From a virus (lineage: Duplodnaviria; Heunggongvirae; Uroviricota; Caudoviricetes): 64,000 bases of DNA. Where the stretch lies: IMG/VR virus record IMGVR_UViG_3300025133_006513, positions 53,289-117,288 of that record; one strand, written 5' to 3'. Position numbers and translations under genes: made by a program. Under the pieces are notes generated by a model, which worked only from the letters and a program-made list of their open reading frames with translations, searched no databases and was not told the origin of the DNA. Of this stretch, positions 777 to 58,846 are shown piece by piece (position 1 is the first letter of the stretch; every line of letters starts with the position of its first letter).

Positions 777-1471
777 TCAAACTAACGCTCGAACAGGCCG
801 TCAGACAGAACCAGTTCCTCAGTCAGAGGATGCTGGTAGTGCAATCACTTCTGAGCTCGCTCGGGAGTGAAGGTACTAACGCAAAAGGGTTATCCCCGGA
901 CATGCTGTTATCTTTTCCAAGAGCTGCCATACTCTGGGAGTTTGCCGCTGTTGTGGCTCGCGGGATTATACCGCAAGATGCTATGATAGTAGTGATTCAG
1001 ATGTTCCAGAAGGAGCTGATAGATAAAGCAATGTACTGGGAGAAGACGATCGAGGAGCATCCTGAGGATCCCAAACTAGTGCCTCAGGTCCTCGCGGTAC
1101 ATGATCGGAAGCTCATACACATCGCCGGTGAGACGAAGTTCTACGACGTGCAGCACTGCAACCTCATCGAAGAGTCGCCAAAGGTTTTTGAAGGTGTGTC
1201 TTACAATCTGGCAGTTCCGGTACAGCTGGAATGGCTGAAGATTCAACAGGAGAGCAAGGATGCCGCTGACCGCCAAAGTCCGAGAAACACTCCTGGATCC
1301 CCACACCCCAGCGACAGTGCTGCTGGTATTAGCCGTCGACCTGCTGGGGCCGGAGGTGCTGGAGTGGGACCCCCAAACAATCCGTATGGAGCTCGAGGAG
1401 GTCGCAGCCTCAAAGATCTCCAGCAGCACCTTAAACAGAACGATGGCAGCGATCGAGTTGGTGACAACTAA
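773..1471 (+). CDS. hypothetical protein; 3' end uncertain because the last ~70 codons are G/P/R-rich and look out of frame
   Basis: ATG at 773 is coupled to the upstream stop. The N-terminal 160 aa look protein-like. The ORF overlaps 1260..1982 in another frame. Confidence 0.4.
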   Translation: MIKLTLEQAVRQNQFLSQRMLVVQSLLSSLGSEGTNAKGLSPDMLLSFPRAAILWEFAAVVARGIIPQDAMIVVIQMFQKELIDKAMYWEKTIEEHPEDPKLVPQVLAVHDRKLIHIAGETKFYDVQHCNLIEESPKVFEGVSYNLAVPVQLEWLKIQQESKDAADRQSPRNTPGSPHPSDSAAGISRRPAGAGGAGVGPPNNPYGARGGRSLKDLQQHLKQNDGSDRVGDN

Positions 1472-1982
1472 CGGCTTCTATCGTGACCTACCTACCTTCA
1501 TCCGTCTGTGCAACGTGCTCTACAACGGCACGATGGACTTGGAAACGTTTGATCCCGCCGACGCTGGCGAGATCGCGTGGGGCGTAACGGAATCGCTCCT
1601 CATATGGCCGCCTGATCCTCAGGACGAGGAACCTTTTGACCAGAAGATCGCTACATATATCGGATACGCCCTCAAGGATGAAGGTATAATGCAGCCACCT
1701 GATGTGCTGCAGCTCGGTATCTTACCCAGCGATGTATGGGCTAAAGTTCAGGCGGCATTTTCTGATGATCCTCAAATGTTTCGCATGATCCACGATGTGG
1801 AGAAGGCCAAGACAGATGAGATCAATGCGATGGTAAAGCAAAGGCTTGCCGTCATTCTTCACACACTGGACGAGATACCTCTCGATACCGGTGATGCCAA
1901 GGATTCAGTTCGGACGATGCTTGGCGCTCTCAAGAGGACCGAACAGAAAAGTGATGAACTCAAACCAGTAAATCATGCCTAG
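1260..1982 (+). CDS. hypothetical protein
   Basis: 240-aa ORF with balanced composition. This frame opens at 1239. Confidence 0.55.
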   Translation: MPLTAKVRETLLDPHTPATVLLVLAVDLLGPEVLEWDPQTIRMELEEVAASKISSSTLNRTMAAIELVTTNGFYRDLPTFIRLCNVLYNGTMDLETFDPADAGEIAWGVTESLLIWPPDPQDEEPFDQKIATYIGYALKDEGIMQPPDVLQLGILPSDVWAKVQAAFSDDPQMFRMIHDVEKAKTDEINAMVKQRLAVILHTLDEIPLDTGDAKDSVRTMLGALKRTEQKSDELKPVNHA

Positions 1983-3192
1983 AACTTTACGAGGCACTGG
2001 AAGAGACTACACGTCAACCCCTCCGTATCCACACTCTGCGGCAAGTTATGCACAGCAGGTACAGGCGTCACAACCGCTAGAGACACGCGAATATCGGGAT
2101 ACAGCGTTTGTGGAGGAGGATATACCGTTGCCTTTCCAGATCGTACAACGAATTACACCGCCGCTGCTTAGCGTGGTGTGGATACGGCGAGTTGACCGTA
2201 TCAATACACACATCTCGAACATACGTATGTTCGAAGGTGATTACCATGACTTACGTGATGGTTACATCGGGGGCCGCGCTGGCTCAATCTTTCTCGTATG
2301 TACGCAACCAAGCGCAGCACCAGATCTGGTGCACGCGTACATACTGCTCCCTGATGGTTTATGGTGCAACACAGGTATGCTGCCAATCGCGAGGCAGCCA
2401 GGATGGCACCAGCTAGTACGCCCGCACATCGCCAGTTGGACATGCTTATCGCGTGTCCAGCGGGTGGTTCAAGCAGGCACACTTATGCAGAACGTCCTCA
2501 CCAACGAGCTACACGCCCTAGGTGAAGACGCTGATCGAGAACACACAGAACCTGTCGAGGCCGCGCTCGATCATGTGCGTCGTGTCATTAACGTGGTTAC
2601 CAATCAAACTGTAGATCTGACGCCAAGTGCTATTAGGCGGTCATTTAATAACTGGGTAACAGAGACGATGCGTGCGACAGACTCGACCAGTGACCAGGTG
2701 AATATCGCTCTGGAGCATATGCTTAACGTCCCACAACCGACAGTAGCTAAAGATCTGACTGACGGTATATGGGCGTTACAGCGACTGCACCGCGATACCG
2801 CAAAGCAACCAGTTGAAGGCATCAATGACTTCCCGCAATTGCGTGCAGCGTTGCGGCGTATCCAGGCTGCAATGGAGCGAGAAGAATTCCTACGAGAGTG
2901 GCAATACACCGCAGTCCGACGCATCGGAATGCGAAAGAAAGCCCGACAGGCTTCTACCGACAGAACACTTACAGAGCTTTTAGCTGACTATAAGTGTGAC
3001 AAGGTGGAGCCTTACTTAAGAGCTAACTACGCATGGCACTGCACCAACAGAGGTGCAATGGAACGCGTAGTTCAGCAAGCGATATCACTTGCAAATTTGC
3101 ATATGACTCGAGACGAAGGTGAAGCCCTTCGCAGTACAGACAATCGTCAGAAACGACATATAAAACTTGGAAGGAAGCGAGATGGCAACTAG
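1975..3192 (+). CDS. hypothetical protein with C-terminal RQKRHIKLGRKRDGN tail
   Basis: 405-aa ORF overlapping its neighbours by a few nucleotides. It ends in the recurring basic tail motif. Confidence 0.6.
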   Translation: MPRTLRGTGRDYTSTPPYPHSAASYAQQVQASQPLETREYRDTAFVEEDIPLPFQIVQRITPPLLSVVWIRRVDRINTHISNIRMFEGDYHDLRDGYIGGRAGSIFLVCTQPSAAPDLVHAYILLPDGLWCNTGMLPIARQPGWHQLVRPHIASWTCLSRVQRVVQAGTLMQNVLTNELHALGEDADREHTEPVEAALDHVRRVINVVTNQTVDLTPSAIRRSFNNWVTETMRATDSTSDQVNIALEHMLNVPQPTVAKDLTDGIWALQRLHRDTAKQPVEGINDFPQLRAALRRIQAAMEREEFLREWQYTAVRRIGMRKKARQASTDRTLTELLADYKCDKVEPYLRANYAWHCTNRGAMERVVQQAISLANLHMTRDEGEALRSTDNRQKRHIKLGRKRDGN

Positions 3193-4225
3193 CTTTTCTC
3201 AACGTCTTATGGACAAGATTGACTCAGGTTCAAGCATAATCTGGATCTATCTCACCGGCGATGAAGGCCGGGCGGAACGACAGCTCAAAGAAATCACCAA
3301 ACAATACGCCATAGCATCAGACACCCCAATCGGGTTCGAGCATTGGAACTGTGTTGCAGGTGCCAGCTGGCAAGCAAAGCTCAAGGATCCTGCAGCAGCG
3401 ATGCTGGAGATCAGAGATAAGCTCGCAGGTAATGTGCTCGTCCTGATGAAGGACCTGGCCACATACCTTAACGGCCAAGGTGCAAAGAACCTTGAGCTAC
3501 GACGATGCCTGGCAGAGCTCTGCTGTGCCAACGCACTGTCGAATAACTCGCGAACACGACCAATCGTGATCCTCGCGACAACACCTACGCCACACCCAGA
3601 CATCGCGGAATACTGCGACGTCATCGACTTCGACCTGCCTAAGTACCCAGAAATGCGTGAAGACGTGGTTGACTTCATCGTCAACTCGGCCCAAACGAAC
3701 AATAAAGGGAACACAAAGGCCAGTGCTGAAGACGACGAGCTGCTTGAGCGTATTACTCGAGCACTCCTGGGAACCACGGCAGAAGAAGCACAACGCATCT
3801 TCGCCTTCGCCATCACTACGGTGGGGGAGATCTCGGAAGACGTATTGGAAATCATCGCGGCTGAAAAGGCCAAGGTCATCCGTAAGGTTGAAGGGCTGCG
3901 GTTCATCCCGCACTCCAAGATCCCTGAGGAGACAGCGATTGGCGGTTTCTCGTATTTCTTACCTTGGTTGAAGAAGCGAGCAAGAGCGTATTCGCGGCAC
4001 GCACAGTCTGTCGGCTTGGAGCTACCTCGTGGTTCTGTGCTAATCGGGCCTCCGGGCACGGGTAAGACAATGGTAGCTAAGTCTGCGGCGAAGATGCTCG
4101 GGCTGGACTTGATCATCATGGATATCGGTAGCATGTTCGACAAATACGTCGGCGGCTCCGAAGCCAAGATCAGAACAGCCCTGCAAACCGTAGCGGCTAT
4201 GCCCAACGCCCTGCTGATGGTGGAT
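3182..4225 (+). CDS. AAA+ ATPase, exon 1 (N-terminal domain, Walker A GPPGTGKT, ends ...LLMVD)
   Basis: RBS GGAAGGAAG lies upstream of ATG 3182. Walker A is present. Exon 1 stops at the Walker B aspartate; the DE-IDKAF continuation is found at 5081. Confidence 0.7.
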
Positions 4226-5080
4226 AGATTCTGTCCCACAGGTCGGTGACGGCCTGTAGCAAAGCCCTTTAATTGCAAGAAACTCCTATTCGTAATACCA
4301 ATACGAAGGACAATTTGCAGCCAAACCGCAGTATGCCCTGCGGAAGGTTCAGAGACTAGGCGAAAGCCGTAGGACCCAAGCGGGTTCGAAACAGGGGCCT
4401 TGTCAAACGTACGATTGTGATGTAGGTTAGAAAAGGTTTTTCTAACGTATATCAGGAGGTTAGTTTATGTGGAGTCGCAAATTTGATCGTTGTATCGAGT
4501 GCAAGCGTGACGAAATTCCACACATGGCCAAAGGGCTGTGTGGTCGCTGCTATATGCAACAGTACGTGGCTGATAACCGCGAAACTGTTGCGAAATATAA
4601 GCGAGATTGGTATTTTGCGCATCACGAAGAGCAACTAGCTGCTCGTAAGATCACCAGAGAGCAAATACACTTTTCTGGTATGCGGGAAGCAGCTATACGT
4701 GTTGCGTATCGTAAATGTCAACGATGCGGCAGCGATCAACAACTATGTGTGCACCATAAAGATCGGAACGGTCGCGGATGCGATCAGCCCGATAACACAC
4801 TTGATAACCTGGAAGTACTATGCCGACGGTGCCATATCAATGAGCATCGTGCAGAATTAGTAGCAAGCAGGCGGCAAAGTGACACACCTAAACTAAACAA
4901 GCACGGTACGTGGAGTATCAAACATGACGCATGCACAGAGTGTGCGTCTAATTGCTACGCCCATGCAGCCAAAGGGCTGTGTACTCGATGCTATCAGCGT
5001 GCTAAGACAAGATGACATAGTCCGGACTTGCAGGTAACTGTAAGAGTGCCACCGGAAGCGGGTGGTGCGTAACATATTCG
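4226..5080 (+). mobile_element. group-I-like self-splicing intron carrying an HNH homing endonuclease ORF
   Basis: The intron interrupts the AAA+ Walker B motif. The 5' exon ends in U (..GAU) and the intron ends in G (5080), as expected for a group I intron. The 5' part (4226-4466) is ORF-free with GNRA-type hairpins (GGCGAAAGCC). Splicing restores LLMVD|EIDKAF. Confidence 0.6.
4467..5015 (+). CDS. HNH homing endonuclease (intron-encoded)
   Basis: HNH motif CVHHKDRNGRGCDQPDNTLDNLEVLCRRCHINEH. There are N- and C-terminal CxxC...CxxC zinc-finger repeats. RBS AGGAGG precedes the ATG. Confidence 0.75.
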   Translation: MWSRKFDRCIECKRDEIPHMAKGLCGRCYMQQYVADNRETVAKYKRDWYFAHHEEQLAARKITREQIHFSGMREAAIRVAYRKCQRCGSDQQLCVHHKDRNGRGCDQPDNTLDNLEVLCRRCHINEHRAELVASRRQSDTPKLNKHGTWSIKHDACTECASNCYAHAAKGLCTRCYQRAKTR

Positions 5081-5746
5081 GAAATTGACAAAGCGTTCGC
5101 GGGTGCTCACGAAGGCCAGTCCACCGACTCTGGTGTGGCTTCTCGCGTCCTGAGTTACTTCCTGAACTGGCTCAGTGAGCGAGACATGGGCAGTGAAACA
5201 GATAACCGTGTGTTCGTCATGGTGACGATGAACCGCACAGCAGGTGTCGACTCGGCTATGCTACGTAGTGGCCGATTTGATCGGGTATGGTCTACTGACC
5301 TCCCAGACAAGGATGAACGTATGCAGATCCTCAAGATCCACATGACCAAACGTGGACTGGATGCCGAGAGTTATGGCAAGACGCTCGGGAAGGTAGTCAG
5401 CGCTACCGATACGTTCACTGGTGCAGAGCTTGAAGAGATCGTTATCTCTGCACGTAACGACGCCTACGACGAGCGTATGACACGCTATGAAGAAGGCGGT
5501 AAGAAAGGCGAGGCACCTGGTGTCGAAGCCATCCGTCCTACTATTGAAGAGCTCTTGAGTGCAGCAGGTGAAATCACCCCTGTGGCTCAGCTCGATCAAG
5601 AGGACATTGCTGCTATCAGAAAGTTCTGCCAGGAAAACACATACCCTGTTAACGGGGAACGTGTGCAGAGTACCAAACGTAGTCGGTCCCCCCGCAAGGT
5701 CGCAACTGGGCGAGCCAAGACGGGCTCCGACGTTTCAAACAACTAG
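5081..5746 (+). CDS. AAA+ ATPase, exon 2 (EIDKAF..., sensor 1, arginine finger SGRFDR, sensor 2/lid)
   Basis: The frame is open from 5021. It reads EIDKAFAG...NRVFVMVTMNR...RSGRFDR...TGAELEEI and has no start or RBS of its own. Confidence 0.7.
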   Translation, partial: EIDKAFAGAHEGQSTDSGVASRVLSYFLNWLSERDMGSETDNRVFVMVTMNRTAGVDSAMLRSGRFDRVWSTDLPDKDERMQILKIHMTKRGLDAESYGKTLGKVVSATDTFTGAELEEIVISARNDAYDERMTRYEEGGKKGEAPGVEAIRPTIEELLSAAGEITPVAQLDQEDIAAIRKFCQENTYPVNGERVQSTKRSRSPRKVATGRAKTGSDVSNN

Positions 5747-5755
5747 GAGAGTCAC

Positions 5756-6172
5756 GTGAGTCATATCACAAAACGTAAGTCGTCGATGAAGAACGAAGAG
5801 ACCATCAAGAAGGCCGTAGCGCGAATCAAGGGGGCTTCGTACGAAGGCCTTGGTTCGACTCGGACCTACAACAATGGTTCGATTCGTGGTCACCTTGTAC
5901 AGCTACCCGGCTGGAAATACAAACTCGCCATTGACCCCGCCACAGGGGAATGCGTGTTTGACAACTACAACGGGAGCTGGGGCAAGGACGAGCACCTCGA
6001 CGCATTGAAGCAGGGCTACGCTGTGGAAGCAGCCAAGGCTAAGGCCGAAGAAGAAGGCCACGAGTTCATCGAAGAGATGCAGGAAAACGGCTCGATCAAG
6101 TGTGTCATCCCCTTGGGCGGTGGCGGTTACGAAATGGGTGGCGACGGTGGCGGAGACGGCTACGACGTCTAA
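5756..6172 (+). CDS. hypothetical protein with Gly-rich C-terminus
   Basis: GTG start preceded by GGAGAG. The C-terminus reads PLGGGGYEMGGDGGGDGYDV. Confidence 0.5.
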   Translation: MSHITKRKSSMKNEETIKKAVARIKGASYEGLGSTRTYNNGSIRGHLVQLPGWKYKLAIDPATGECVFDNYNGSWGKDEHLDALKQGYAVEAAKAKAEEEGHEFIEEMQENGSIKCVIPLGGGGYEMGGDGGGDGYDV

Positions 6173-6220
6173 GTTCCTCGTCAATTTTGTTCAGCGAAAC
6201 AAGTTTGGAGTAAGAAAACC

Positions 6221-6439
6221 ATGAGCACTGCTCAACACACAGGCCCTCGCATTGAGATCCTGGTCGACAAGAAGGGCAATCCCACCGTAAGCGCACCAGG
6301 CGTCGGTGGTGGAGATTGTAAGATCAAATCAGCGGGCTATGAGTCGCTGTTTGGCGATGTTATCGAGACCCAGGCCACGTCGGAAGCATTTGAAGACGAG
6401 CCCGAGATCGAAATCAAGATGGAGCAAGACAATAGCTAA
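6221..6439 (+). CDS. hypothetical small protein
   Basis: ATG with GGAGTAAGAAAACC upstream. 72 aa. Confidence 0.5.
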   Translation: MSTAQHTGPRIEILVDKKGNPTVSAPGVGGGDCKIKSAGYESLFGDVIETQATSEAFEDEPEIEIKMEQDNS

Positions 6440-6764
6440 GTCAGTTGCTATCGTCATAGACGCAGACGGAACCGCTCGGAGCCTCGTAGATGAGGCCTCC
6501 GAGCGGATCTGCTCTGAGATTGGCCCGAAGATTAGTACGCGACGGGCCTCTCATGTAGAGAGTTGGTGGGACCTAACACCTAACGTCAGACGGTGGATTA
6601 AAGACAATCTACTCGACGGCGACTGCAGTAAGGTCGATACCAACGCATTCTGGGCAGACATGCTGCCCGTCGGCGGACCCGTTCTCGGGCCGTATGTTAA
6701 TTACAAAGAGGCCATCGACGCTGAGGTCGCATGGCTGCACGAGCACAATATCCCCGGAGCCTAG
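6438..6764 (+). CDS. hypothetical protein (start uncertain, no ATG near the 5' end)
   Basis: The protein-like part of ORF 6306..6764 begins around 6438. The upstream part is R-rich and out-of-frame-looking. Confidence 0.35.
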   Translation, partial: KSVAIVIDADGTARSLVDEASERICSEIGPKISTRRASHVESWWDLTPNVRRWIKDNLLDGDCSKVDTNAFWADMLPVGGPVLGPYVNYKEAIDAEVAWLHEHNIPGA

Positions 6765-6766
6765 TC

Positions 6767-6862
6767 ATGGATCCGGACGGTATCAGTAATGACTTCAGTT
6801 GGTTCGCCATCGCAGTCGTTGGAGTGCTGATCGCTAAGTTCCTGACAACACTACCCATGTAA
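6767..6862 (+). CDS. putative 31-aa membrane peptide
   Basis: ATG follows GGAGCC and overlaps the upstream stop. The hydrophobic core reads [15 protein letters not shown]. Confidence 0.3.
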
Positions 6863-7009
6863 CTTCAGATAATCGACGGCGCGGCTGAGGGTGTCGGCAT
6901 TGTCTTTGGCGTAGCCGAGTACCAAATTACAGGCACGGCAAAGCAGTCCTCGCACTTCGTTACGGTCGTGGCAGTGGTCAACAGCTAGGAGTGTAGTCTG
7001 GATTTTTGG

Positions 7010-7198
7010 CTAACCAGTTAGCCGTGGCTTGCTTACTTTCTGCCCGTTTTTTGCGGGGGATAGTCTATCCCGGCGACGCCGGTGGGCTTTACTCGCACAC
7101 TCACGACAAGGACTATACGGCTTGCCGGTAGTTTTACGAGTATAGAAATCTGCGATCGGTTTATCCGTGTCGCATTTACTGCAGTATTTAGTAGCCAT
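7010..7198 (-). CDS. small zinc-finger protein resembling the N-terminal domain of the phage HNH endonuclease at 58815..59216
   Basis: CSKCDTDKPIADF...CREC parallels CSKCNKNKPLAEF...CALC in the HNH protein. No HNH catalytic motif is present. Confidence 0.45.
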   Translation of the reverse strand: MATKYCSKCDTDKPIADFYTRKTTGKPYSPCRECASKAHRRRRDRLSPAKNGQKVSKPRLTG

Positions 7199-7252
7199 GG
7201 GATCTCCTTATGGTTACATTCCAATTAACCAAGTAAATCAGGCAGAGGCAGT

Positions 7253-8399
7253 AATGTCAAGTAATATACCGCCAGAAGAAGACTTGCTGGATGCTATCAC
7301 GAAGAACGTGTTCCTCGTGATGTTACGGTGCAGTTGGCCCAAGATGTCTTATCAAATCGCTGATGCGATTGTGGAGATCAAGGTCGACGGCGAGGAGAAG
7401 AAAGAAGTTGATGCAGAGTTCCGCACCAAACCCCAATGGCAGTTGATGCCGGCGGCGTGGCGGAGCAAACTGACCAACCTTGAAGGACGTGCACGGTCAT
7501 TACTGTCCGCTGCGTCCATCCAGTTCGCTGCGAGGGGCATGTCTGTATTGCCCATCGCGAGAGCTGGAGAGATCTTCGCAGGCCTTCGGGCCTTACGTAC
7601 GGAGCTTGAAGGCTACCGTGACGAGTTTGTCCAAGACTATGAGGGCATCCTCGTGAGGCTTGAAGAGAGCCTGGATGGTGATCTGTTCGAGAAGGTACAG
7701 GGCAAGCTCCCTGCCGTCGAGACGGTTGCCAGTAAGTTCAGCCTGGTTTGGGCTATCATCCCAGCAGGTGGCAAGCAGAGCGTCTCTGAAACTGAGCTGG
7801 GCCAACTGCAGGATGTACTCAACCACGCTATCCAAATGGATCTGCAGCTTGACGACACCGATCCCGCTGTCAGTCACTCAATAGCGAGGGCTGGGCAGGT
7901 ATTGGATAACATGCGAGCACGTAGCGAGCAACAGTCCAGGACGATCGATGACGATGAGGCTTCTGAGCTCGTACAGGAGGCCCAGCAGCAGATGCGTTCC
8001 TTTACGAACGACATGCTGGAAGACATGGCTCGCGAACCTCGCAGGGTCCTTGTCGATGCAGCTGATAACCTGCTGGAAGCATTGAAGAATCCCGATCGGA
8101 TCATCCGAAGCGGCACTATCAACCAAGTACGTGATGCATTTCAGATGCTTGAGGGCTTTAAGTTCCTCGCTGGCGATCAACTGCTTGCACGTATGCGTGA
8201 GTGCCGCGCAAGTCTTGAAGATATGACGCCTCGCACGCTGAACTCCAACGCTGAGATCGGGGCCCAACTGGCTGCCGGGCTCACAGGGGTCAGAGAAGAG
8301 GCTGCTGATACGCGTGCTGCAGCGACAGCTATGCGACAATTCCGAGGCATCAAGCTGCGGGACAAGTCAAAAACCAAACGGCAGCCCACGGCTGTCTAA
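7253..8399 (+). CDS. hypothetical protein ending in ...RQFRGIKLRDK... (variant of the recurring tail); alternative starts at 7167 and 7196
   Basis: AGAGG RBS lies 6 nt before ATG 7253. The ORF runs to 8399. Confidence 0.55.
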
Positions 8400-16369: not shown

Positions 16370-16441
16370 GCCGCATTAGTCTAGTGGTTATGACTTCGGA
16401 TTTTCTATCCGACAACGGGAGTTCGATTCTCCCATGCGGTA
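16370..16441 (+). tRNA. tRNA, anticodon loop UUUUCUA (UUC-Glu by the canonical 7-nt loop; UCU-Arg not excluded)
   Basis: Hand-folded cloverleaf. The acceptor is GCCGCAT/ATGCGGT with a G1-U72 wobble. The D loop is AGTGGTTA. The anticodon stem is TCGGA/TCCGA. The T arm is GGGAG-TTCGATT-CTCCC. The discriminator is A. Confidence 0.6.
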
Positions 16442-16446
16442 CTTGA

Positions 16447-16517
16447 TGCCTGGAAGTGTACTGGCTGCACACTAAGTTTTGGTCTTAGGAGACTGGGTTC
16501 GATTCCCGGCCGGGCTG
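16447..16517 (+). tRNA. tRNA-Gln-like (anticodon UUG)
   Basis: D stem GTGT/GCAC. Anticodon arm CTAAG-TTTTGGT-CTTAG. T arm CTGGG-TTCGATT-CCCGG. Six of seven acceptor pairs form, with a 1:72 mismatch. Confidence 0.5.
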
Positions 16518-16536
16518 CTTGAAAGGAGAGTGATAA

Positions 16537-19677: not shown

Positions 19678-19825
19678 TGAAACTGAGGGGCACTGGGCAG
19701 GAACATCCCGGTGCTAGGTTGTGTGTAGGATAGGTGGGAGGCTATGAGCTACTGGCACAAGTCAGGAGTTAGCCGTTGGTGAAATACCACCCGCAACCTT
19801 TCCTCTTTTTAGAAGGAGGTGAAAC

Positions 19826-20092
19826 ATGGGGACAACGCTAGTACCCGTGCCGTGGAAGTTTCAGAATAGAAAGTGCTGCCATCACTGTAAGCTGGTTTTC
19901 CCTGTGAAGGCGACAGCCGGGTACTGCCCGCACTGCTGGCCTCGCAAATGTTTTGTTGACGTCGGCCAGTTCAGATGGATTCGTACAAGCAAGTGGTGGG
20001 AGTTTTGGGTTCGCGGTAAAGGTTACTGGCTACCCATGATGGCGCCATTCACCCGGTACGCAGATGCACCGCCGCGGCCGCCTAGTCGGTAA
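19826..20092 (+). CDS. small zinc-ribbon protein
   Basis: Strong RBS AGAAGGAGGTGAAAC. CCHHC...CPHC motifs. Confidence 0.55.
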   Translation: MGTTLVPVPWKFQNRKCCHHCKLVFPVKATAGYCPHCWPRKCFVDVGQFRWIRTSKWWEFWVRGKGYWLPMMAPFTRYADAPPRPPSR

Positions 20093-40535: not shown

Positions 40536-40742
40536 ATGTCGCATGACAAGGACGATAGAAGTACGTTGAAGAATCGACGGTGTTTAAGATGCCAAGAATC
40601 ATTCGAATCACTTCACGCGGGAAACCGTATTTGTCCTGTATGTGCGGCTAAGCCTGTTATGCAGGCAGGGCTACAACGTACCTACCTAGATTTTTTCTCA
40701 AGTCCATCGGAGTCGTTTTCAGATGACGAGTTTGACAGATAA
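40536..40742 (+). CDS. small zinc-ribbon protein
   Basis: CLRC...CPVC motifs. Confidence 0.5.
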   Translation: MSHDKDDRSTLKNRRCLRCQESFESLHAGNRICPVCAAKPVMQAGLQRTYLDFFSSPSESFSDDEFDR

Positions 40743-42180
40743 GGGCCCAACAGCAGAGCGTGTAGTTGTTGTTGGCCCTGTTATTACAGATAGATACTAC
40801 CTTGGTAAATCAGACCGTGTTGACCAGACGGCTGCTGTACCTATTGTGGACGTAGCCCCAGATGGCTCGTTCGCGTCCCTTGGCGGGGCTGCTAATGCTG
40901 CACGGTGCCTGGCGAGTTTAGCCATGCCTGTCGCCTTCATCAGTGCCGTTGGCGACGACCCTGCCGGGCGTGCGTTCATGGATACAGAGCTGCCAATGAT
41001 CACACGGTATGTCAAAGTGGCACCAGGCTATCAAACGCCTGTCAAGAACCGCGTGTACTCTACCGGCAACCTTGTTGCCCGGTTTGATATAGACGAGAGC
41101 CCGAAGGTCAATGTCGAAGACTACATCATCGATATGTTTCAACGATGTGTCGACGACAGCAAGCCACTGGCTATTCTTATCTCAGATTATGCCAAGGGTA
41201 TCTGCACTGAGCGGACCCTGACGCATATCATGGCGTATGCTAAGGCGAATGACGTCAAGGTGGTTGTAGATCCTACGCCGCTGCACATGCAGTTCTACCG
41301 CGGTGCCCACATTGTGACGCCTAACGCGGCTGAGTGCATGGTGGCCACAGGGCTCGAGACTGTCGGGCGTAGTGCTGCTGTTATCTGTACTGAGCTTGAG
41401 GTTGCCAGTGTTGTGGTTACCTGTGGTGCTGATGGCTTGTTTATCTCTACGGGTCCCGATGATCCACCCGAGACCATGCCTGCGGTTCCGGCTCTGCCAG
41501 TAGATACTTGTGGTGCAGGTGATGTTATCGCCGCAACACTAGCCTACGGCACAGCTGTAGATATCCCTCCTACTGCGATGTATCACATGGCGGTGGCTGC
41601 TGGGGCTATCTGTGTGGAGTTTGGCGGTGCAGGGCCTGTGTCGCTGCATCAGATCCATAAGCGTATTGCTACGGTGTTCGGTGCAGAGCGTAAACTCGTC
41701 AACGCTGATTTTACGACGTTGTTGCGTATGTCAGTCGCCATAGACGGCACTAAGTTTGGTGTAACCAACGGCATCTTCGATGTACTGCATCCTGGCCACG
41801 TGTCTATGTTACGGCAAGCCCGTGAGGCTTGTGACTTCCTTGTGGTGCTGCTCAACACAGACAGCTCTGCAGAAGGTATCGGCCGTAAGCCTGTCATGCC
41901 CCTTACGTCGCGTGCTTCACAACTGGCGGCACTTCCGTGTGTCGACGCTGTTATGGCGTTTGATGGCGCGACACCCGAGCCTGAGATCGCAAGGCTACTG
42001 CCTGACGTGCTGATTAAAGGCCCGGAGCTGAAGGGTAAAGAGAAAGAGATCCCTGGGTATGATGTTGTAGTGGATAACGGTGGCACGATTGTCATCGCAA
42101 CACTCGAGCACGATACACACGGGACCACCATCAAAGAGAAGGTAATTGAGTCGGAAGCTAGGCAAGAAGGCGAAGCGTAA
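40723..42180 (+). CDS. hldE: bifunctional D-beta-D-heptose 7-phosphate kinase / D-beta-D-heptose 1-phosphate adenylyltransferase (HldE/RfaE) homolog
   Basis: Domain I: VVVVGPVITDRYYLG...GGAANAA, ILISDYAKG, DTCGAGD (ribokinase family). Domain II: GVTNGIFDVLHPGHVSMLRQA (HxGH nucleotidyltransferase). It is collinear with E. coli HldE across both domains. Confidence 0.8.
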   Translation: MTSLTDKGPTAERVVVVGPVITDRYYLGKSDRVDQTAAVPIVDVAPDGSFASLGGAANAARCLASLAMPVAFISAVGDDPAGRAFMDTELPMITRYVKVAPGYQTPVKNRVYSTGNLVARFDIDESPKVNVEDYIIDMFQRCVDDSKPLAILISDYAKGICTERTLTHIMAYAKANDVKVVVDPTPLHMQFYRGAHIVTPNAAECMVATGLETVGRSAAVICTELEVASVVVTCGADGLFISTGPDDPPETMPAVPALPVDTCGAGDVIAATLAYGTAVDIPPTAMYHMAVAAGAICVEFGGAGPVSLHQIHKRIATVFGAERKLVNADFTTLLRMSVAIDGTKFGVTNGIFDVLHPGHVSMLRQAREACDFLVVLLNTDSSAEGIGRKPVMPLTSRASQLAALPCVDAVMAFDGATPEPEIARLLPDVLIKGPELKGKEKEIPGYDVVVDNGGTIVIATLEHDTHGTTIKEKVIESEARQEGEA

Positions 42181-51864: not shown

Positions 51865-53514
51865 ATGAATCCTATGATCCCGGCCACCGAGGCCAACCCG
51901 ATGGCGGCGAGCCCAATGGTGTCGCATATACCGCCAGAGGCAGACCAGGCTGCGATGAGGCTTGATTTCCTGTTTATGCATATCGTGCAGCATCAGGGTA
52001 CGTTTGATCTTGCATATTCGCAGTTAGAGCCAGACATGCTGGCTAATAATCGTGAGATGCATTACCGGCATGTCTGGCGATGCATCAAGGCACACTGGGA
52101 TGAGTTCGGTCGCATACCTGCGTACGAATCCCTGTGCACAGCGGCACTCCCCGCCGTTGCTGAGGATAGCATCGCTAAGATGAGCAAAGCGGTCAAAGAC
52201 ATGATCATCGAGCAAACGGAGACGTTGCTTGCTTTCATGTACGCCCCTGAGCATAACGCAGAGAATCTTGAGGTAGAATTTGCTACGGCCATCTTACGCG
52301 AGCTCTTGATCGACAGAGGTCCTGAGCTTGAGATTCGTCGTGCCGTGGCGAGCGCAGCTACCAGCATGATTACTAACCTGCCAGATATTGTGCAGCGAGC
52401 CCAGAAGCGTATCGAGGACATCACGTCACTGGGTACGATACAGGAAGAGACCACTACCGTACCTAAGGTATGGGAACAGGTAGCTGTTCCTCGTGTACCT
52501 TGTGGTGTTGAATGGGTCGATACAATCATGGGCGGAGGTGCGGAGCCTGGTAACTGTATGGTCATCATGGGGCCGACAGGTGGCGGTAAAACCACAACCT
52601 CTATGCAAATCGCCGTCACAGCAGCAGCACTACAACCGATCGACCCGAACCCTGGGCTGGTTGTGTTCATTAGTTACGAAGATGACATGCGTATGATTCA
52701 GATTCGAGCCACATCGTGTGGTGCGAATGTGTTGAAGGACTCACTTCGTGATGCTAAATCAGGCGTGAGTTTCAGTTCTGTTGGGAATTTGAAGCCATAC
52801 GAACAGAGCTTGTATGGTGCAGGTATCCCGAAGCACGAGCGGCTTGGTGAGATAGAACGCATCAAGATGGCCGAGCCGTGGTTGGATAAGTACCTGCATC
52901 TGGTTGACTTTCATGATCCCGCTAAAGGTGGTCGTGGTGGTATTCCAGAGGTCAGGGCACGCCTTATGGCCCTCCAAGAGAAACATGGCCTGCCAATCAA
53001 AACAGTTGTCTTAGACTGGGCGGGTACGCTGGTAACCAACTACCTGCAAGGTATCGGTATCTCGGCGGACGGCTCCAGGATGTCGCTCGAGCTGCAAGAC
53101 CTTGTACGGAAGTGTAAGCATGAGCTGGGTATCCCTTTCGGGTGTACTGTATGGATACCGCACCAGTTGACAGGTAAGTGCAATAAAGCATCACCGTCGA
53201 CATTCCCGCATCACGCAGATGCTCAATGGTGTAGCACGTTCTCCGATCACGCGACGTATGCGTTTGTACTGGGGACTAAAGACAAAGAGCATAGTATCGT
53301 GCAATTCGGGGCCACTAAGACCCGACACGGTGAGACACCTGGCCCAATCATCCTTAAGGTGGACGGGGCATTCTGTCGTATGGTCGACGTTACCAAACAA
53401 TTCTCTGTTGATCGTATCTCTGGACGCTTGGTGCCCCAGAAAGACGCAGCAAAATTCCATGTTAGCGATGCGGCTATTGAGGCTGTATCGTCGGATGTAA
53501 ATAGTGATAGATGA
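51865..53514 (+). CDS. DnaB-like replicative helicase
   Basis: GGAGCC RBS. Walker A VIMGPTGGGKTTTSMQIA. RecA-like C-terminal domain. The primase lies immediately downstream. Confidence 0.7.
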   Translation: MNPMIPATEANPMAASPMVSHIPPEADQAAMRLDFLFMHIVQHQGTFDLAYSQLEPDMLANNREMHYRHVWRCIKAHWDEFGRIPAYESLCTAALPAVAEDSIAKMSKAVKDMIIEQTETLLAFMYAPEHNAENLEVEFATAILRELLIDRGPELEIRRAVASAATSMITNLPDIVQRAQKRIEDITSLGTIQEETTTVPKVWEQVAVPRVPCGVEWVDTIMGGGAEPGNCMVIMGPTGGGKTTTSMQIAVTAAALQPIDPNPGLVVFISYEDDMRMIQIRATSCGANVLKDSLRDAKSGVSFSSVGNLKPYEQSLYGAGIPKHERLGEIERIKMAEPWLDKYLHLVDFHDPAKGGRGGIPEVRARLMALQEKHGLPIKTVVLDWAGTLVTNYLQGIGISADGSRMSLELQDLVRKCKHELGIPFGCTVWIPHQLTGKCNKASPSTFPHHADAQWCSTFSDHATYAFVLGTKDKEHSIVQFGATKTRHGETPGPIILKVDGAFCRMVDVTKQFSVDRISGRLVPQKDAAKFHVSDAAIEAVSSDVNSDR

Positions 53515-55622
53515 ATAGCTCACAACTAACTATGGCGTCTTTGGATAATCTCGCACCGTCGCCGGTGTTGAACCCAACGCTGTACGATCGCATGGTCAAA
53601 ATGTATGGCAGCGTGATCGTAGCTAAGCAGGGTGAGGCCATGTACGGCGGTGGACTGGACTTCGATGGTATGCGTACAAGCTACAAACCGTTGACGTCTG
53701 GGGAGTACTACAGAATAAATTGTTTTGCTGGTGAAACGCTAGTAGCAACAAAGTATGGCGATAAGCCTATTTCTGCGTTAGTAGGGACGGCTGAGCTACT
53801 GGTGCCTAATGCGAAGGGGCTCGGGAGCTGGCGATCCGTAGAGGTTCGTAGTTTCGGTAAGCAGCGGCTGTTACGCTTAACTATTAAGAGACATGGTACT
53901 GTTCGAAACATTCGCGTGACTGCAGATCATCGTTGGCTGTTAAGTGGCGGTAATGGTTGTTATCAAGAAGCGACTACATCCTCACTTGTGCAGGGGGATA
54001 AGTTAGCCTCTTGTTTTGCACGCAAGCTTGTTAGTTATGGGTCACATATGCCAGCCGTGTCGCCATTTGGCGTCGCACGTGGTTTTGTGTTTGGTGACGG
54101 GAGCACCGCTACCGCTAGGCCGCAGCGCCCTGCTTGGGTGGATCTACATGGCGAGAAGGATAAAGCATTGCTACCGTTTTTCTCAATGTGTTGTGCGGTT
54201 GACGTAGGTCCGGCTGTTGTGCGTATAGGCGGGCTACCTCGACAGTGGAAATCGGTACCGTATGAAGTTGTGGATCTTACTACGCTGTGCGGCTGGCTGG
54301 CTGGTTACTTCGCTGCTGACGGGTCCGTCTCGAAGCCGGGTACGCAAGCGGTCCTCGGTTCGGCTAATCTAGAGGGATTGCAGTTTGCTCGCGGAGTGTG
54401 TTATCAGTTAGGAATTCGCATTTCTCCAGTGCGAAAGATAAAACGATCATCTAATGGCTGTGTACCTAATGCGTGTGATTTCCCGTATTACGAGTTCTCT
54501 TTTCCGGCGTCTGATGTCCCTATTGATTTTTGGATCATCGCGGAACATAGACGGCGAGTGCAAGCAGCCGTCGACCGCAATGTAAGTACGGTGCGGGCTT
54601 GGTGGACAGTTGAAGCCGTTGAGGACGACGGAGACGAGGATGAGGTGTTTTGTGCTATAGTGCCGGGTGATGAGAAATTTACACTGGCTAATAACTTACT
54701 AACACGTAACTGCCCATTCTGCCTTAAGCGGGGCGCGGTGGATACTAAGCATCGTCTGTGGATCAATCACAGGTGGGGTGTCGGGCTTGACCCCGACAAT
54801 GAGTTCTACGATCCGAACGATAAGTTCTGGTGGATGGCTGTGTGCTACAACGAGAACTGTCTGGATAACCCGGAGTATCGCAGGACGTTACGTACGTCGC
54901 TGTACGCAGGTGTTGGGCGTGAGAATCACGGGGAGGTTGTTAAAATTCTTCCCGGTAAGACAGACTCAGGAGCTCTCGGGGTGGTTGACTACCCGGGGAA
55001 CTGCCAACTGCTTAATACGCTGCCGCATGACCACAAGGCCTACCAGTACATGCTGGGCCGCGGGTTATCGCCGGAGATGCTTGGCGAGGAGTACGGTGTG
55101 GCGTATTGCCACGAGTCGCTTATGACACCGGTAGCCGCGGCTAAGATCATCATCCCCATCCACATGGACGGCAAGATGGTGAGCTGGCAGGCCCGACCGC
55201 CGTACGACATCGATTGGAAGGCTGCTCGTCAGCCAAAGTATTACAACTGCCCGGGGACCAACAAGCGACTGATGCTATACGGGGCCCAGCAGTCAATGGA
55301 TATGAAGTTCTGCATTGTTGTAGAGGGCGTGACAGATGTTTGGGCTATTGGCGCCGGTGCGGTGTCTGTGCTCGGTAAGGTCATGTCAATGCAACAAGCA
55401 GTCGTCATTAATAAGCTATGGCCTGTAGCCATACTAGTGCTCGACGCCGGCACGGCTGTCGAGAGTAATAAGATGCGTGACCTACTCACGCACGGGGGTA
55501 CACGTGTCGTCACGGTGGAGATGCCAGAGGGCTTAGACCCGGCATCCATCGATCGTGACTATCTGTTTGATTTGCTCTACGGGGCAGCTTCGACGCAAGG
55601 AGTTGATTTACTTACTTTATGA
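53511..55622 (+). CDS. DNA primase (zinc ribbon plus TOPRIM) interrupted by an intein; exteins 53511-53720 and 54711-55622
   Basis: C-extein zinc ribbon CPFC...C..C. TOPRIM motifs CIVVEGVTDVWAIG and LVLDAGTA. ATGA overlap with the DnaB-like gene. Confidence 0.7.
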   Translation: MNSSQLTMASLDNLAPSPVLNPTLYDRMVKMYGSVIVAKQGEAMYGGGLDFDGMRTSYKPLTSGEYYRINCFAGETLVATKYGDKPISALVGTAELLVPNAKGLGSWRSVEVRSFGKQRLLRLTIKRHGTVRNIRVTADHRWLLSGGNGCYQEATTSSLVQGDKLASCFARKLVSYGSHMPAVSPFGVARGFVFGDGSTATARPQRPAWVDLHGEKDKALLPFFSMCCAVDVGPAVVRIGGLPRQWKSVPYEVVDLTTLCGWLAGYFAADGSVSKPGTQAVLGSANLEGLQFARGVCYQLGIRISPVRKIKRSSNGCVPNACDFPYYEFSFPASDVPIDFWIIAEHRRRVQAAVDRNVSTVRAWWTVEAVEDDGDEDEVFCAIVPGDEKFTLANNLLTRNCPFCLKRGAVDTKHRLWINHRWGVGLDPDNEFYDPNDKFWWMAVCYNENCLDNPEYRRTLRTSLYAGVGRENHGEVVKILPGKTDSGALGVVDYPGNCQLLNTLPHDHKAYQYMLGRGLSPEMLGEEYGVAYCHESLMTPVAAAKIIIPIHMDGKMVSWQARPPYDIDWKAARQPKYYNCPGTNKRLMLYGAQQSMDMKFCIVVEGVTDVWAIGAGAVSVLGKVMSMQQAVVINKLWPVAILVLDAGTAVESNKMRDLLTHGGTRVVTVEMPEGLDPASIDRDYLFDLLYGAASTQGVDLLTL
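53721..54710 (+). mobile_element. intein (330 aa) with LAGLIDADG homing endonuclease domain
   Basis: Block A CFAGETLV. Block B TADHRWLL. LAGLIDADG-type LAGYFAADGS. Blocks F/G VFCAIVPGDEKFTLANNLLTRN followed by the +1 Cys of CPFC. Confidence 0.7.
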
Positions 55623-58600
55623 TTACTGACCTCAACCGCGATGACCTGGAGGCAATCTTCCGGGGCGATGAGAAGAACTCGCATACGGAAACGTATCCGA
55701 TGTATCCGCTGACGGCTCCCGGTATGCCGCCAGCTGGTGTGAACTTTATTGCACACGCTCGCCACCTTGGAGACGAGGAGCCGTATTTAATTGAAGGCAA
55801 AGGTAAAGATAAGAAGGTGCTTTCTGCGGGCTTTCATTTGCAGTGCTTATACTTGCGATGCCTGTACAGTAGTGATTTTGATCTGCCCATTAAACTAAAG
55901 GGTAAGACGGAGGTGGTACGTATCGTACCTGGTCGTTTGTGGGGTATGCCGCCTGAGGGCCCTAAACATCTAAGCGACAAGTATTGTGCAGAGTTCAACG
56001 CTAAGCGTGTTATGGTTGTGGGCAAGATACCTACGACGGAGGAGGTCGCGACAGGACGTACGTTGTCGGGCCCTGCGGGACGGCAGCTACGTGAGACGCT
56101 TGAGTCCCTCGGGATGACAGACTCTGAGTTGAATGACTGGTATGTGTGTAATCTGGTGCGATGGCAGAACCTCAACCCCAACAGCTCTGCGTTAGCGCAG
56201 GCGTGGGTTAAGGATTGTCTGCCACTGCTTCACCAAGAGATGCGGCTCTGTGCCCCTGACTTCATTCTGTGTCTGGGTGCTGAGGCTACAAAGGCTGTCT
56301 GTGGGCCTGCTAATTCGGTCAACAACATGATCGGCAGGTACATCGAGAAAGAGATACCGCTCCAGTTGAATGCCGACGAGGAGCCGGAGATACACACAGC
56401 CAAGGTTATGGCTGTCATGAATCCTAGTGCAGTCCTTCGAACTACTGAGCTCTACCCCCAGTTTGAAGCCACACTTCGCAACTTCGTGAAGCTGGTTAAT
56501 GGGGAAGAGTTTGCGACAAGCTCGGACGAGACGATTACGATTCAGTACATATACAAAGAAAGGGACTTGGCAGAGCTGGTGGATCACATCATCGCGCAGC
56601 CAGGCCTCAAGAAGATCGGCGTTGATGGTGAGTGGCATGGTCAGCATCCTGGTGAGCCAGGGTCATACTTACGGACTATCCAGATCAGCCATCACGGCGA
56701 GTTTGCTGCTGTCATTGTGTTGACGGCACAAGGGGGCGAGACAGCATTCGCACCTAACAAAGAACGAGCCATCCACCATCTCAATCGATTACTCGATCGG
56801 GATGATGTGCAGATTGGCGGTAGCTTCTTTTCCGCAGATCTCCCTTGGTTGGAGTACAACGGTTTGCATATTGCACACCGGTTCTGTGTTCCACCGAACG
56901 TGGAGGATATCCGCGGCGGTAACTACGCTGGCGGGTTTGATGTGGCTCTGGCCCATCACGCCTACAATGAGACCGGTGACTTCAAGCTGGAGGTCATGGG
57001 TACCCGCCTATGCGGTGCTGACCGCTGGGACGTTAAGCTGCAGGAGTGGAAGCGAGATTACCTGCATAAGCATAAGATGAAGGATGAAGAGCTTGAGGGC
57101 TACGGAGAGTGCCCAGAGGAAGTTCTTCTACCCTATGGCGGTAAGGATGCCGCGTATACGCGACAGCTCATGGACAAACACTGTGAGCTACTCGACGCGG
57201 ATAAGCATGGTAACGATTGCTGGGTTCCGTTCCACCTGTCCATGATGGCCTTCCCGGCTTTCAATGAGATGGGTACGACAGGGGTCAAGATCGACCTGGA
57301 ACGTATCGATACGTTGACCGACTTATTCCAAGAGATACGTGAAGAACGACTCGCTGAGCTACGTCAAGCGATCAACTGGCCAGGGTTCAACCCTCGCAGT
57401 AGTCAGCAGTGCGTGGAGTTCCTATTTGGAGCCCAGTACTCGACAAAGATCGATAAAGACGGCGAGCGAGTCAGCGTGGCACCTGAGGGAGCGACAACGC
57501 TCGACTTACAGCCAATTAAATCCACGGGTAAAGGAAAGCCCTGGGGTTGGGTACTGTCCCGCAACGAGCAGGATAAGTACTCACCGTCTACTGACAAGGA
57601 AGTTTGTGGGATCTTAGGAGCCCGCCACCCACTAGCACGTTCATTGCGAGACGTACGGCTAATTGACCAAGTCCTTAAGTCTGTATTCCGCCCACCAGTC
57701 ATGACCAAAACAGAAGGTCCTGAGCTGACAAAGGATGGTTACAGAATATACAAGGGCGGCATAGCCAAGTACTGTTGCTATGACTTCAGAGTCCGAAGTA
57801 CCTTCCAGCAAGTGAAGGAGACCGGCCGTGCTTCATCAGCTCGCCCACCGTTGCAGAATATCAGCAAACGTCGCGAAGACGACTACGCTAGAATTCTGGG
57901 CAGCAGATACATGTGCCCCATCAGATCTTTTATCGTGAGTAATACCGACACCGAATACGGCGAACCGACTGTGCTACTTGAAGCAGATTATAAAGGTGCT
58001 GAGCTACTCGGTATGGCTGTTATGTCACGTGACGAGACTATGTTGGATCACTGTACGCGAGCTAACTTATCGGATGATGATCCGAACCAATATGACATCC
58101 ACTCAAACATAGCTGTACAAGCTTTTCGCCTGGACTGTGCTCCCAACAAGAAGGGGCTCAGTGCCATCGGAAAGAAAGGCATGAGAGTGGCTGCAAAGAA
58201 TATTATCTTTGGTGTGGGTTACGGTCGCACAGCAGAAGCATGTGCCCGTCAATGCCAAGAAGAAGGAGCCCATATTTCAGAGGCAGAGGCGCAGGTGATT
58301 ATCAATACGATTTTCGCTACGTACCCAGGGATCCCAGCGCTTCAAGAAGCGTTGAGGGCCCGGGTGCATTCGCCTGGGTGGATTCGAAATTGTTTTGGAC
58401 GACTACGACGCTGTATTCGTACGGCGGATAGGGCTGCGATGGGAGAGCTGGAGCGACAGTTCCTGAACTTCCCTTTCCAGTCCATGGTGGCAGACGCGGT
58501 GAGTATCGCGTTGTTCCACCTATATAATCATCCTCGGAAAGCAGAACTGGGGTATCGCATAGTGTTGCAAATTCATGACGCTGTAGTCCTCGAGGTACCC

Positions 58601-58846
58601 TTGCGGAGCGTGGCGGAGGTAGCGGATATTGTACTTCCAAGTTGTATGGTTCAAAAAGTGTCTTTCAGGTCATGCGATTGGGACGGGGTTCCGTATAGTG
58701 ACTCACCCACGTACCGATTTGGTATCGACATGGACCTAGCGACCAGGTGGGGTGTGACCCCTACCTGGGATGAATGTGACGAGATGGGTATCGACAGGAA
58801 GTTCGGGAAGCCACCTAAGGCTGCGAAGATTCTTGTAAGTAGTTAG
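55619..58846 (+). CDS. family A DNA polymerase with N-terminal UDG family-4-like domain and 3'-5' exonuclease domain
   Basis: UDG-like VVGKIPTTEEVATGRTLSGPAGRQL...YVCNLVRW. Pol motif A DYKGAELLGMA. Motif B RVAAKNIIFGVGYG. Motif C QIHDAVVLEV. Confidence 0.85.
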   Translation: MITDLNRDDLEAIFRGDEKNSHTETYPMYPLTAPGMPPAGVNFIAHARHLGDEEPYLIEGKGKDKKVLSAGFHLQCLYLRCLYSSDFDLPIKLKGKTEVVRIVPGRLWGMPPEGPKHLSDKYCAEFNAKRVMVVGKIPTTEEVATGRTLSGPAGRQLRETLESLGMTDSELNDWYVCNLVRWQNLNPNSSALAQAWVKDCLPLLHQEMRLCAPDFILCLGAEATKAVCGPANSVNNMIGRYIEKEIPLQLNADEEPEIHTAKVMAVMNPSAVLRTTELYPQFEATLRNFVKLVNGEEFATSSDETITIQYIYKERDLAELVDHIIAQPGLKKIGVDGEWHGQHPGEPGSYLRTIQISHHGEFAAVIVLTAQGGETAFAPNKERAIHHLNRLLDRDDVQIGGSFFSADLPWLEYNGLHIAHRFCVPPNVEDIRGGNYAGGFDVALAHHAYNETGDFKLEVMGTRLCGADRWDVKLQEWKRDYLHKHKMKDEELEGYGECPEEVLLPYGGKDAAYTRQLMDKHCELLDADKHGNDCWVPFHLSMMAFPAFNEMGTTGVKIDLERIDTLTDLFQEIREERLAELRQAINWPGFNPRSSQQCVEFLFGAQYSTKIDKDGERVSVAPEGATTLDLQPIKSTGKGKPWGWVLSRNEQDKYSPSTDKEVCGILGARHPLARSLRDVRLIDQVLKSVFRPPVMTKTEGPELTKDGYRIYKGGIAKYCCYDFRVRSTFQQVKETGRASSARPPLQNISKRREDDYARILGSRYMCPIRSFIVSNTDTEYGEPTVLLEADYKGAELLGMAVMSRDETMLDHCTRANLSDDDPNQYDIHSNIAVQAFRLDCAPNKKGLSAIGKKGMRVAAKNIIFGVGYGRTAEACARQCQEEGAHISEAEAQVIINTIFATYPGIPALQEALRARVHSPGWIRNCFGRLRRCIRTADRAAMGELERQFLNFPFQSMVADAVSIALFHLYNHPRKAELGYRIVLQIHDAVVLEVPLRSVAEVADIVLPSCMVQKVSFRSCDWDGVPYSDSPTYRFGIDMDLATRWGVTPTWDECDEMGIDRKFGKPPKAAKILVSS

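Follow-up and report, generated by a model that had tools for sequence, protein, structure and literature searches.

Does a gene that is cut in two at its catalytic centre still encode one enzyme? This question is raised by a stretch of 64,000 nucleotides (nt) of tailed-phage DNA, positions 53,289 to 117,288 of IMG/VR virus record IMGVR_UViG_3300025133_006513 (the window, to which all positions below refer). In it, a gene for an AAA ATPase breaks off within its Walker B motif at 4225 and resumes at 5081. The initial annotation had proposed that the 855 nt in between are a group-I-type intron with a gene for an HNH endonuclease inside. Our results support this proposal, and we put the probability at about 0.93 that the phage AAA ATPase gene is split by a group I intron, exactly between the two catalytic codons of Walker B. 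Gene and intron features are on the plus strand unless stated otherwise, and other loci and proteins are cited by L and P numbers.

Exon 1 (3182 to 4225, 348 codons) begins with an ATG at 3182, in agreement with the N-termini of its homologues (MSFSQSFMDKIDSG), contains the Walker A motif GPPGTGKT and ends in LLMVD, at the position first given for it. The Asp codon, GAT, occupies 4223 to 4225, so that U is the last base of the exon. When the homologue P0001 was compared with the window by tblastn, the exon-1 match stopped at 4225; past that point the frame runs on for seven codons (RFCPTGR) and meets a TGA at 4247-4249. Exon 2 (5081 to 5746, 221 codons and a stop at 5744-5746) opens with GAA ATT GAC (EID), the start of EIDKAF, and continues through sensor 1, the arginine fingers and the lid; from 5081 the frame reads EIDKAFAGAHEGQSTDSG. 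It is open only from 5021 and, as had been noted, lacks a start: no ATG, GTG or TTG was found before 5135. Thus, 18 codons that are conserved in homologues could not be translated without splicing.

Joined, the two exons read LLMVDEIDKAF across the junction and give a product of 569 amino acids. The ligated RNA is predicted to carry GGUGGAU directly followed by GAAAUUGAC or, with the junction written out, GCTGATGGTGGAT followed by GAAATTGACAAAGC. Pfam AAA (PF00004) covers the joined protein in a single stretch (residues 286-417, E 5e-26), and PHROG 8638, a phage family of unknown function, matches it from end to end (4.6e-93). Solved structures of VAT, p97 and Cdc48 align with it gap-free across the junction (best E 5e-52). 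In this structure-based alignment LLMVDEID is the Walker B strand, VTMNRT contains the sensor-1 Asn and AMLRSGRFDR is the arginine-finger region, which bears out the sensor-1 and arginine-finger motifs and the canonical Walker B that had been read from the letters. Walker A, the Walker B hhhhDE, the sensor-1 Asn and the arginines of the second region of homology form one continuous domain only after the exons are joined. By these motifs, the host gene is predicted to encode an AAA ATPase of the classical clade.

Comparison with homologues, one of the checks suggested at the outset, gave the same result. A large protein database contains 19 uninterrupted full-length homologues (P0001-P0019; 558-572 amino acids, 62-78% identity), and at seven IMG/VR loci (L001-L007) the gene is a single continuous open reading frame (ORF) of 1.7 kilobases. 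More distant uninterrupted homologues, in Agrobacterium phage JP1, Rhizobium phage L338C and cluster-O-like mycobacteriophages, also align in one piece across the junction. Thus, intron-less alleles exist. Both exons are free of frameshifts and stops and are 75-80% identical to the uninterrupted homologues. An intein in 4226-5080 was considered and is ruled out by in-frame stops at 4247 and 5018. Nor is the insert an artefact of assembly, because independent metagenome assemblies contain the very same locus (positions 1467-8015 are 100% identical in L029). Marine samples in which this phage occurs include JGI 3300008050 and 3300006789.

The insert itself has the properties of a group I intron. 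It is preceded by U4225 and ends in G5080, the two nucleotides that had been pointed out. The Rfam model RF00028 (Intron_gpI) aligns in full (positions 1-253 of 253) with 4215-5044, at 55.1 bits and an E value of 2.9e-11 for the whole window, and the alignment shows the four classic conserved elements, AAUUGCAAGAAA, AAUUUGCAGCC, GGUUCAGAGACUA and AAGAUGACAUAGUCC. When the ORF was deleted, the remaining 282-nt core folded with a minimum free energy of -100.1 kcal/mol (z = -4.45 compared with shuffled sequences), and this fold contained P1, P2, P3, P4, P5, P6/6a, P7.1, P7.2, P8, P9 and P9.1. The intron signal is far beyond chance, by the Rfam E value as by the z score. Neither a permissive Rfam scan nor nhmmer searches with family profiles detected another copy or a different intron in the window, and no uninterrupted homing site was found elsewhere in it.

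The helices can be followed from the 5' splice site. P1 (4222-4236; 4222-4227 with 4231-4236) is present in both the minimum free energy and the centroid structure, holds the wobble pair U4225.G4233 at the splice site, and belongs to an internal guide sequence that continues to 4239 (GUCCCAC). P2 (4239-4256, CAGGUCG-GUGA-CGGCCUG) shows compensatory changes in 8/8 pairs, and the in-frame stop of exon 1 at 4247-4249 lies in its loop. The stretch from the P3 5' strand (4264-4269) to J6/7 (4264-4353) has the P, Q and R elements and comprises P4 (4274-4279 with 4314-4319), P5 (4284-4294 with 4302-4310) and P6/P6a (4320-4348), after which comes J6/7. The 5' strand of P7 (4354-4358, GACUA) pairs with UAGUC at 5018-5022, and P7 and P3 form the usual pseudoknot, by its fold the guanosine-binding site. 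P7.1 (4359-4368, GGC-GAAA-GCC) and P7.2 (4372-4387, GGACCC-AAGC-GGGUUC) follow, with compensatory changes in 4/4 and 3/6 pairs. The P3 3' strand (4393-4398, AGGGGC) adjoins the P8 5' strand (4399-4404, CUUGUC). On the other side of the ORF are the P8 3' strand (5006-5011, GACAAG), J8/7 (5012-5017, AUGACA) and the P7 3' strand with the S element (5018-5022), then P9 (5027-5044, CUUGCAG-GUAA-CUGUAAG; 5/7 pairs with compensatory changes), P9.1 (5046-5068; 7/8 pairs) and a 3' tail up to the terminal omega G at 5080. The 241-nt 5' segment (4226-4466) is free of ORFs and has two GNRA loops, as the initial annotation described, L2 GUGA (4246-4249) and L7.1 GAAA (4362-4365); a third, L9 GUAA (5034-5037), lies in the 3' segment. 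P7.1 and P7.2, situated between P7 and the P3 3' strand, place the intron, as far as its predicted fold shows, in subgroup IA, for which these extra helices are a class criterion (PMC3984707).

The same intron family occurs in related genes. Many database homologues of the ATPase end at the same point, with LMVD and a few junk residues, and the first contigs fetched for such homologues each had an Rfam group I intron there (63-89 bits). Ten other interrupted AAA genes carry the family at the equivalent place with RF00028 scores of 52-89 bits (L008, L009, L011, L012, L013, L014, L026, L027, L033 and the second of two introns in L036); three uninterrupted loci gave no Rfam group I intron match. 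A pattern derived from P4/P5 also revealed the family in distant AAA ATPase genes (L016-L019, L026, L027 and L028), which are 25-35% identical to P0001 in the aligned parts and have the intron at GTGGAT/GAA, the slash marking the insertion point. Four of the related introns lack an ORF and measure 257-264 nt (L009, L011, L012 and L014), and two with a homologous ORF measure about 850 nt (L008 and L013). All ten end in G, at boundaries set by the exon reading frame.

Covariation was examined in the window intron and the ten related introns. From the 11-sequence core alignment, RNAalifold recovered P2 to P9.1 unaided, with compensatory changes in 41/70 pairs. In the full structure, with P1 and P7 added, 96.9% of cells are standard pairs, versus 35-43% in a control in which the 3' partners were slid by 1-3 columns, and 43/73 pairs show changes on both sides. 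None of 500 shuffles reached any observed pairing measure. P7 is paired in 100% of cells and in L013 has gone from GACUA with UAGUC to GAUCA with UGAUC, two pairs changed on both sides. The P1 pairing GGAU with GUCC is retained in 8-10 of the 11 introns, and nine have UG at the splice-site pair, the remaining two being out of alignment register there. The fold, which could thus be both built and searched by covariance model as first suggested, is therefore backed by evolution and not by energy alone.

The ORF of 182 codons (4467-5015) is looped out of P8, in a frame other than that of the exons, and its predicted product has the order zinc ribbon, HNH nuclease, zinc ribbon. A Shine-Dalgarno sequence, AGGAGG (4454-4459), lies 7 nt ahead of its start, and a hairpin (GUUAGAAAA-GG-UUUUUCUAAC, 4426-4446) lies upstream of that sequence. 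A scan of 3000-6000 found no promoter, and its sole terminator-like match was on the minus strand and at chance level; there is thus no sign that the ORF is transcribed separately. The PHROG HNH families match the product at 1e-6, in line with the HNH ORF announced for the insert. Only 16 relatives, of 173-227 amino acids, were found among 5.8 billion clustered proteins. In 14 aligned relatives H96, H97, N110, N114, H123 and H127 are invariant, as are 12 Cys in three Cys4 sets (C9/12/25/28, C84/87/119/122 and C156/159/172/175), and the N-terminal zinc-ribbon module (WSxK...CxxC...KGxCxxCY) recurs at the C terminus. This conservation of the HNH and zinc ligands indicates that the nuclease is under purifying selection. 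The AlphaFold model has a pLDDT (predicted local distance difference test) of 91, and its best Foldseek matches in the PDB are all HNH nucleases (Cas5-HNH, Cap5, ZRANB3, McrA and Gme), weak ones at E >= 0.06. Based on these features, we predict that the ORF encodes a homing endonuclease of the HNH (beta-beta-alpha-metal) type, from a small family with two flanking zinc ribbons. Every relative with a readable contig sits at a split AAA gene, and the intron family is confirmed in all of them except L034, where the break is away from Walker B, no intron is confirmed, and the HNH gene is upstream of a fragment that still holds Walker A. The ORF is carried by a mobile element that some alleles lack (L001-L007 and P0001-P0019), and introns free of the ORF occupy the same site.

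We propose the following model for this element. Most likely, the intron would splice itself out in the standard group I manner, and its endonuclease would then drive homing into alleles that lack the intron. The transcribed RNA would fold into the P1-P9.1 core, and an external guanosine bound in P7 would attack after U4225, held in P1 by its wobble with G4233. The terminal G5080 would then occupy the guanosine site and the exons would be ligated, giving a messenger RNA for the 569-amino-acid ATPase. The ORF in the P8 loop would be translated into an HNH endonuclease with two zinc-ribbon DNA-binding modules. In a mixed infection this enzyme would be expected to nick or cut alleles without the intron, close to the Walker B codons, and repair from the intron-bearing copy would insert the intron.

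Several points weigh against this model. Splicing is deduced from the sequence. The RF00028 score is just 5 bits above the gathering score of 50, and P10 is weak, about 3 base pairs (UUC with GAA), and is not relied upon here. The Pfam HNH match (PF01844) is marginal, 22.2 bits against a cut-off of 21.4. Foldseek found no solved structure that matches the HNH model at E <= 0.001, and the best sequence match in the PDB, the HNH domain of IscB, reached only E 0.039, so that no specific characterised homing enzyme can be assigned as a relative; tblastn of the HNH protein against GenBank phages gave no match. Last, the end of the ORF, a feature that we add to the first description together with the subgroup, overlaps P8' and J8/7. 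Its last codons run through both, and the stop TGA (5013-5015) lies in J8/7; translation could thus disturb folding, and folding translation. Wherever an intron of the family has an ORF, this ORF ends within the ribozyme core, at a TGA in J8/7 (the window and L016) or at a stop in P7' (L008 and L013).

This overlap bears on the alternative that survives best. The element may be a true group I intron whose splicing in vivo needs a protein helper; this could be the HNH protein, in the role of a maturase, or a factor from the host or the phage. In that case, translation that proceeds through the ORF into P8' and J8/7 would gate splicing, and the intron would time the expression of the ATPase. Besides the ORF ends within the core, such control would fit the hairpin found directly ahead of the Shine-Dalgarno sequence in 4/5 ORF-bearing members (L008, L013 and L027 have hairpins similar to that of the window), and a review states that intron ORFs that extend into the core are usually tightly controlled, which spares folding (PMC3984707). 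However, the core is complete and stable in silico without a helper, and no such protein is encoded by the ORF-less introns found at the same site. To our knowledge, the subgroup IA phage introns studied so far (T4 td, nrdB and nrdD, SPO1 and Twort) self-splice in vitro, which also counts against a helper. We therefore consider a need for a helper unlikely.

It is considerably less probable that the intron has decayed and no longer splices, which would make the ATPase a pseudogene with, at most, a 355-amino-acid N-terminal protein ending in RFCPTGR. Such a reading could draw on the Rfam score barely over threshold, the weak P10 and the public gene callers, which annotate only the truncated product (P0020). 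But the low score is explained by the 590-nt ORF insertion in L8, as relatives that lack it reach 70-89 bits. No core helix is disrupted and the pairs are standard, the U at -1 and the terminal G are retained, both exons are undamaged, and the HNH ORF is intact with all catalytic residues and zinc ligands. Because core, splice-site nucleotides, exons and ORF have all been preserved, a dead intron is improbable. A split into two genes, which would yield two polypeptides without splicing and have a free-standing HNH gene between them, can be dismissed almost entirely: free-standing HNH genes between phage genes are common (PMC3984707), and L034 may be such a case, but here the break falls inside the Walker B strand between both catalytic residues, exon 2 has neither a start codon nor a ribosome-binding site for its first 18 conserved codons, the ORF is flanked by a complete group I core with covariation, and inserts without any ORF occupy the same site.

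The self-splicing intron that we favour is one of several elements that target this gene family, and its position between the Walker B Asp and Glu codons agrees with the remark made at the outset that it interrupts the most conserved catalytic codons. We call this position (GAU/GAA) site A. It is used in the window, L008, L009/L010, L011, L012, L016-L019, L026, L027, L028, L033 and the second intron of L036, and it is also occupied in AAA genes that are less than 35% identical to each other. Site B (GAU GAG AU/U), 5 nt downstream of site A, is used in L013 and L014, with boundaries set by the required U at -1 and G at the 3' end. Introns at the two sites are homologous: their cores are 64-73% identical, and their HNH proteins 42% identical (E 3e-49). 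Upstream, a third intron site follows DIGS. In L036 both this site (about 4440-4675 of that locus) and the Walker B site (about 4772-5018) carry a group I intron, and 96 nt separate the two. L035 has an insert of about 240 nt after DIGSLFD, for which Rfam gave no call at the gathering score and which we leave unclassified. In addition, P0047 (from L035) and P0053 contain an intein within Walker A (GPPG/C...HN/[CT]GKT). Thus, the ATPase family is a hot spot, with three intron sites and one intein site in nucleotide-binding codons.

The Asp codon before site A differs between alleles. It is GAT in 6/6 intron alleles (window, L008, L009, L011, L012 and L036) and GAC in 6/6 readable intron-less loci (L001, L002 and L004-L007), a small sample in which four of the six intron-less loci share one 36-nt site sequence. 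This pattern fits the requirement for U at -1 in the U.G pair. It could possibly result from co-conversion, or from target immunity if GAC confers resistance to the endonuclease.

The introns at site B keep the guide GUCCCC, which is a better fit for GGAU, the exon sequence at site A, than for AGAU, the one at their own site. This suggests that the site-B introns have recently shifted site. One explanation is that a single lineage of intron and HNH gene occupies both sites and moved by reverse splicing through the GAU/GUC pairing; we regard this as rather doubtful. Alternatively, loose specificity of the endonuclease may have caused the shift. In the DNA polymerase genes of Bacillus phages, related HNH enzymes likewise accompany introns at different nearby positions, which parallels the two sites here. 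If reverse splicing were the cause, this family would provide a natural setting in which to test whether phage group I introns transpose at the RNA level, a pathway for which a review found no direct evidence (PMC3984707).

Several known systems resemble this one. In the DNA polymerase introns of SPO1/SP82 (I-HmuI and I-HmuII) and Bastille (I-BasI), an HNH ORF also sits in a peripheral loop, and the intron interrupts the conserved catalytic region of an essential-looking enzyme and is missing in some relatives, as here (references in PMC3984707). The host genes differ, a DNA polymerase in those phages and an AAA ATPase here. The endonuclease differs as well: sequence comparison links the HNH protein of the window to no solved HNH homing enzyme, and the protein is built differently, with a putative zinc-containing HNH between two homologous Cys4 zinc ribbons. 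The IA2 introns of T4 (td, nrdB and nrdD/sunY) and Twort (classes according to PMC3984707) have the same core, with P7.1 and P7.2 between P7 and P3' and the P, Q, R and S elements, and share the U.G at the 5' splice site, the terminal G and an insertion site in conserved enzyme-coding sequence. The T4 endonucleases are GIY-YIG enzymes (I-TevI and I-TevII) or a defunct HNH type (I-TevIII), unlike the HNH protein here. Moreover, the T4 ORFs loop out of helices other than P8. Inteins cluster in the ATP-binding motifs of ATPases (Novikova et al. 2016, PMC4760082); they too are selfish, use a homing nuclease and occupy the most conserved nucleotide-binding codons, but splice at the level of protein whereas the intron here would splice as RNA.

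That homing introns target catalytic codons is textbook behaviour, and the element appears to be a genuine but ordinary mobile element, which changes no concept and would not surprise a specialist. Conserved enzyme genes of phages have long been known to harbour group I introns with HNH genes, as in T4, SPO1/SP82, Bastille and Twort (PMC3984707). Our literature search, whose coverage was incomplete, turned up no phage AAA ATPase gene described with a group I intron, which is weak evidence that the host gene is new for such introns. A DNA search of 3100-5800 against GenBank phages gave no match, and among deposited phages even the nearest AAA ATPases reach no more than about 30% identity. With this element, the known phage homing introns would gain a host gene and a small HNH family that are both new. 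The finding matters for annotation, too: public gene calls for this phage and at least ten relatives show the ATPase cut short, an HNH gene out of context and a C-terminal piece that belongs to no gene; recognising the intron restores one 569-amino-acid enzyme. Additionally, the ATPase family lends itself, as a compact natural system, to studies of how homing elements select their targets and switch between them.

The window as a whole represents a large double-stranded DNA phage (GC 0.53), to which nothing in GenBank is closely related, with genes for a terminase, an NAD-dependent ligase, an SbcC-like protein, helicases and a family A polymerase, and with two adjacent tRNA genes, tRNA-Glu(UUC) at 16370-16442 and tRNA-Gln(UUG) at 16447-16518, both on the plus strand. 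We made further observations outside the ATPase gene. The 84 nt at 19716-19799 (plus strand) are a copy of part of bacterial 23S rRNA, the L1-stalk region (Rfam LSU_rRNA_bacteria positions 2129-2212, 58 bits, above the gathering score). This copy stands alone in an intergenic region, directly 5' of a Shine-Dalgarno sequence and a small Cys-rich ORF (ATG at 19827), a layout like that of an L1-binding autoregulatory leader. In L038, a second contig of phage-like character, a similar element stands isolated between flanks that are not rRNA; L037 is the same phage and L039 a real 23S gene. A literature search found no report of such an element, and it may be more unusual than the intron.

A DnaG-like primase ORF (53511-55622, plus strand; its Toprim region matches TIGR01391 at 2e-9) contains a putative intein of 330 amino acids with a LAGLIDADG domain (nt 53721-54710, residues 71-400). 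It is located in the zinc-finger motif (YYRIN/CFAGETLV ... LLTRN/CPFC), and Pfam LAGLIDADG_3 matches it with 25.8 bits, above the cut-off, while the Intein_splicing and Hint matches are weak. The family A DNA polymerase (55619-58846, plus strand) has an N-terminal domain of the uracil-DNA-glycosylase superfamily fused to its exonuclease and polymerase domains, and the product of 40723-42180 (plus strand), in which a PfkB-family sugar kinase is fused to a cytidylyltransferase-like domain, resembles HldE of heptose nucleotide-sugar synthesis. Lastly, a short ORF of 34 amino acids on the minus strand (6851-6955) presumably represents the C-terminal portion of a protein of the endonuclease VII type; in the related locus L013, a full Endonuclease_7 gene is similarly placed and adjoins a DUF2997 gene.

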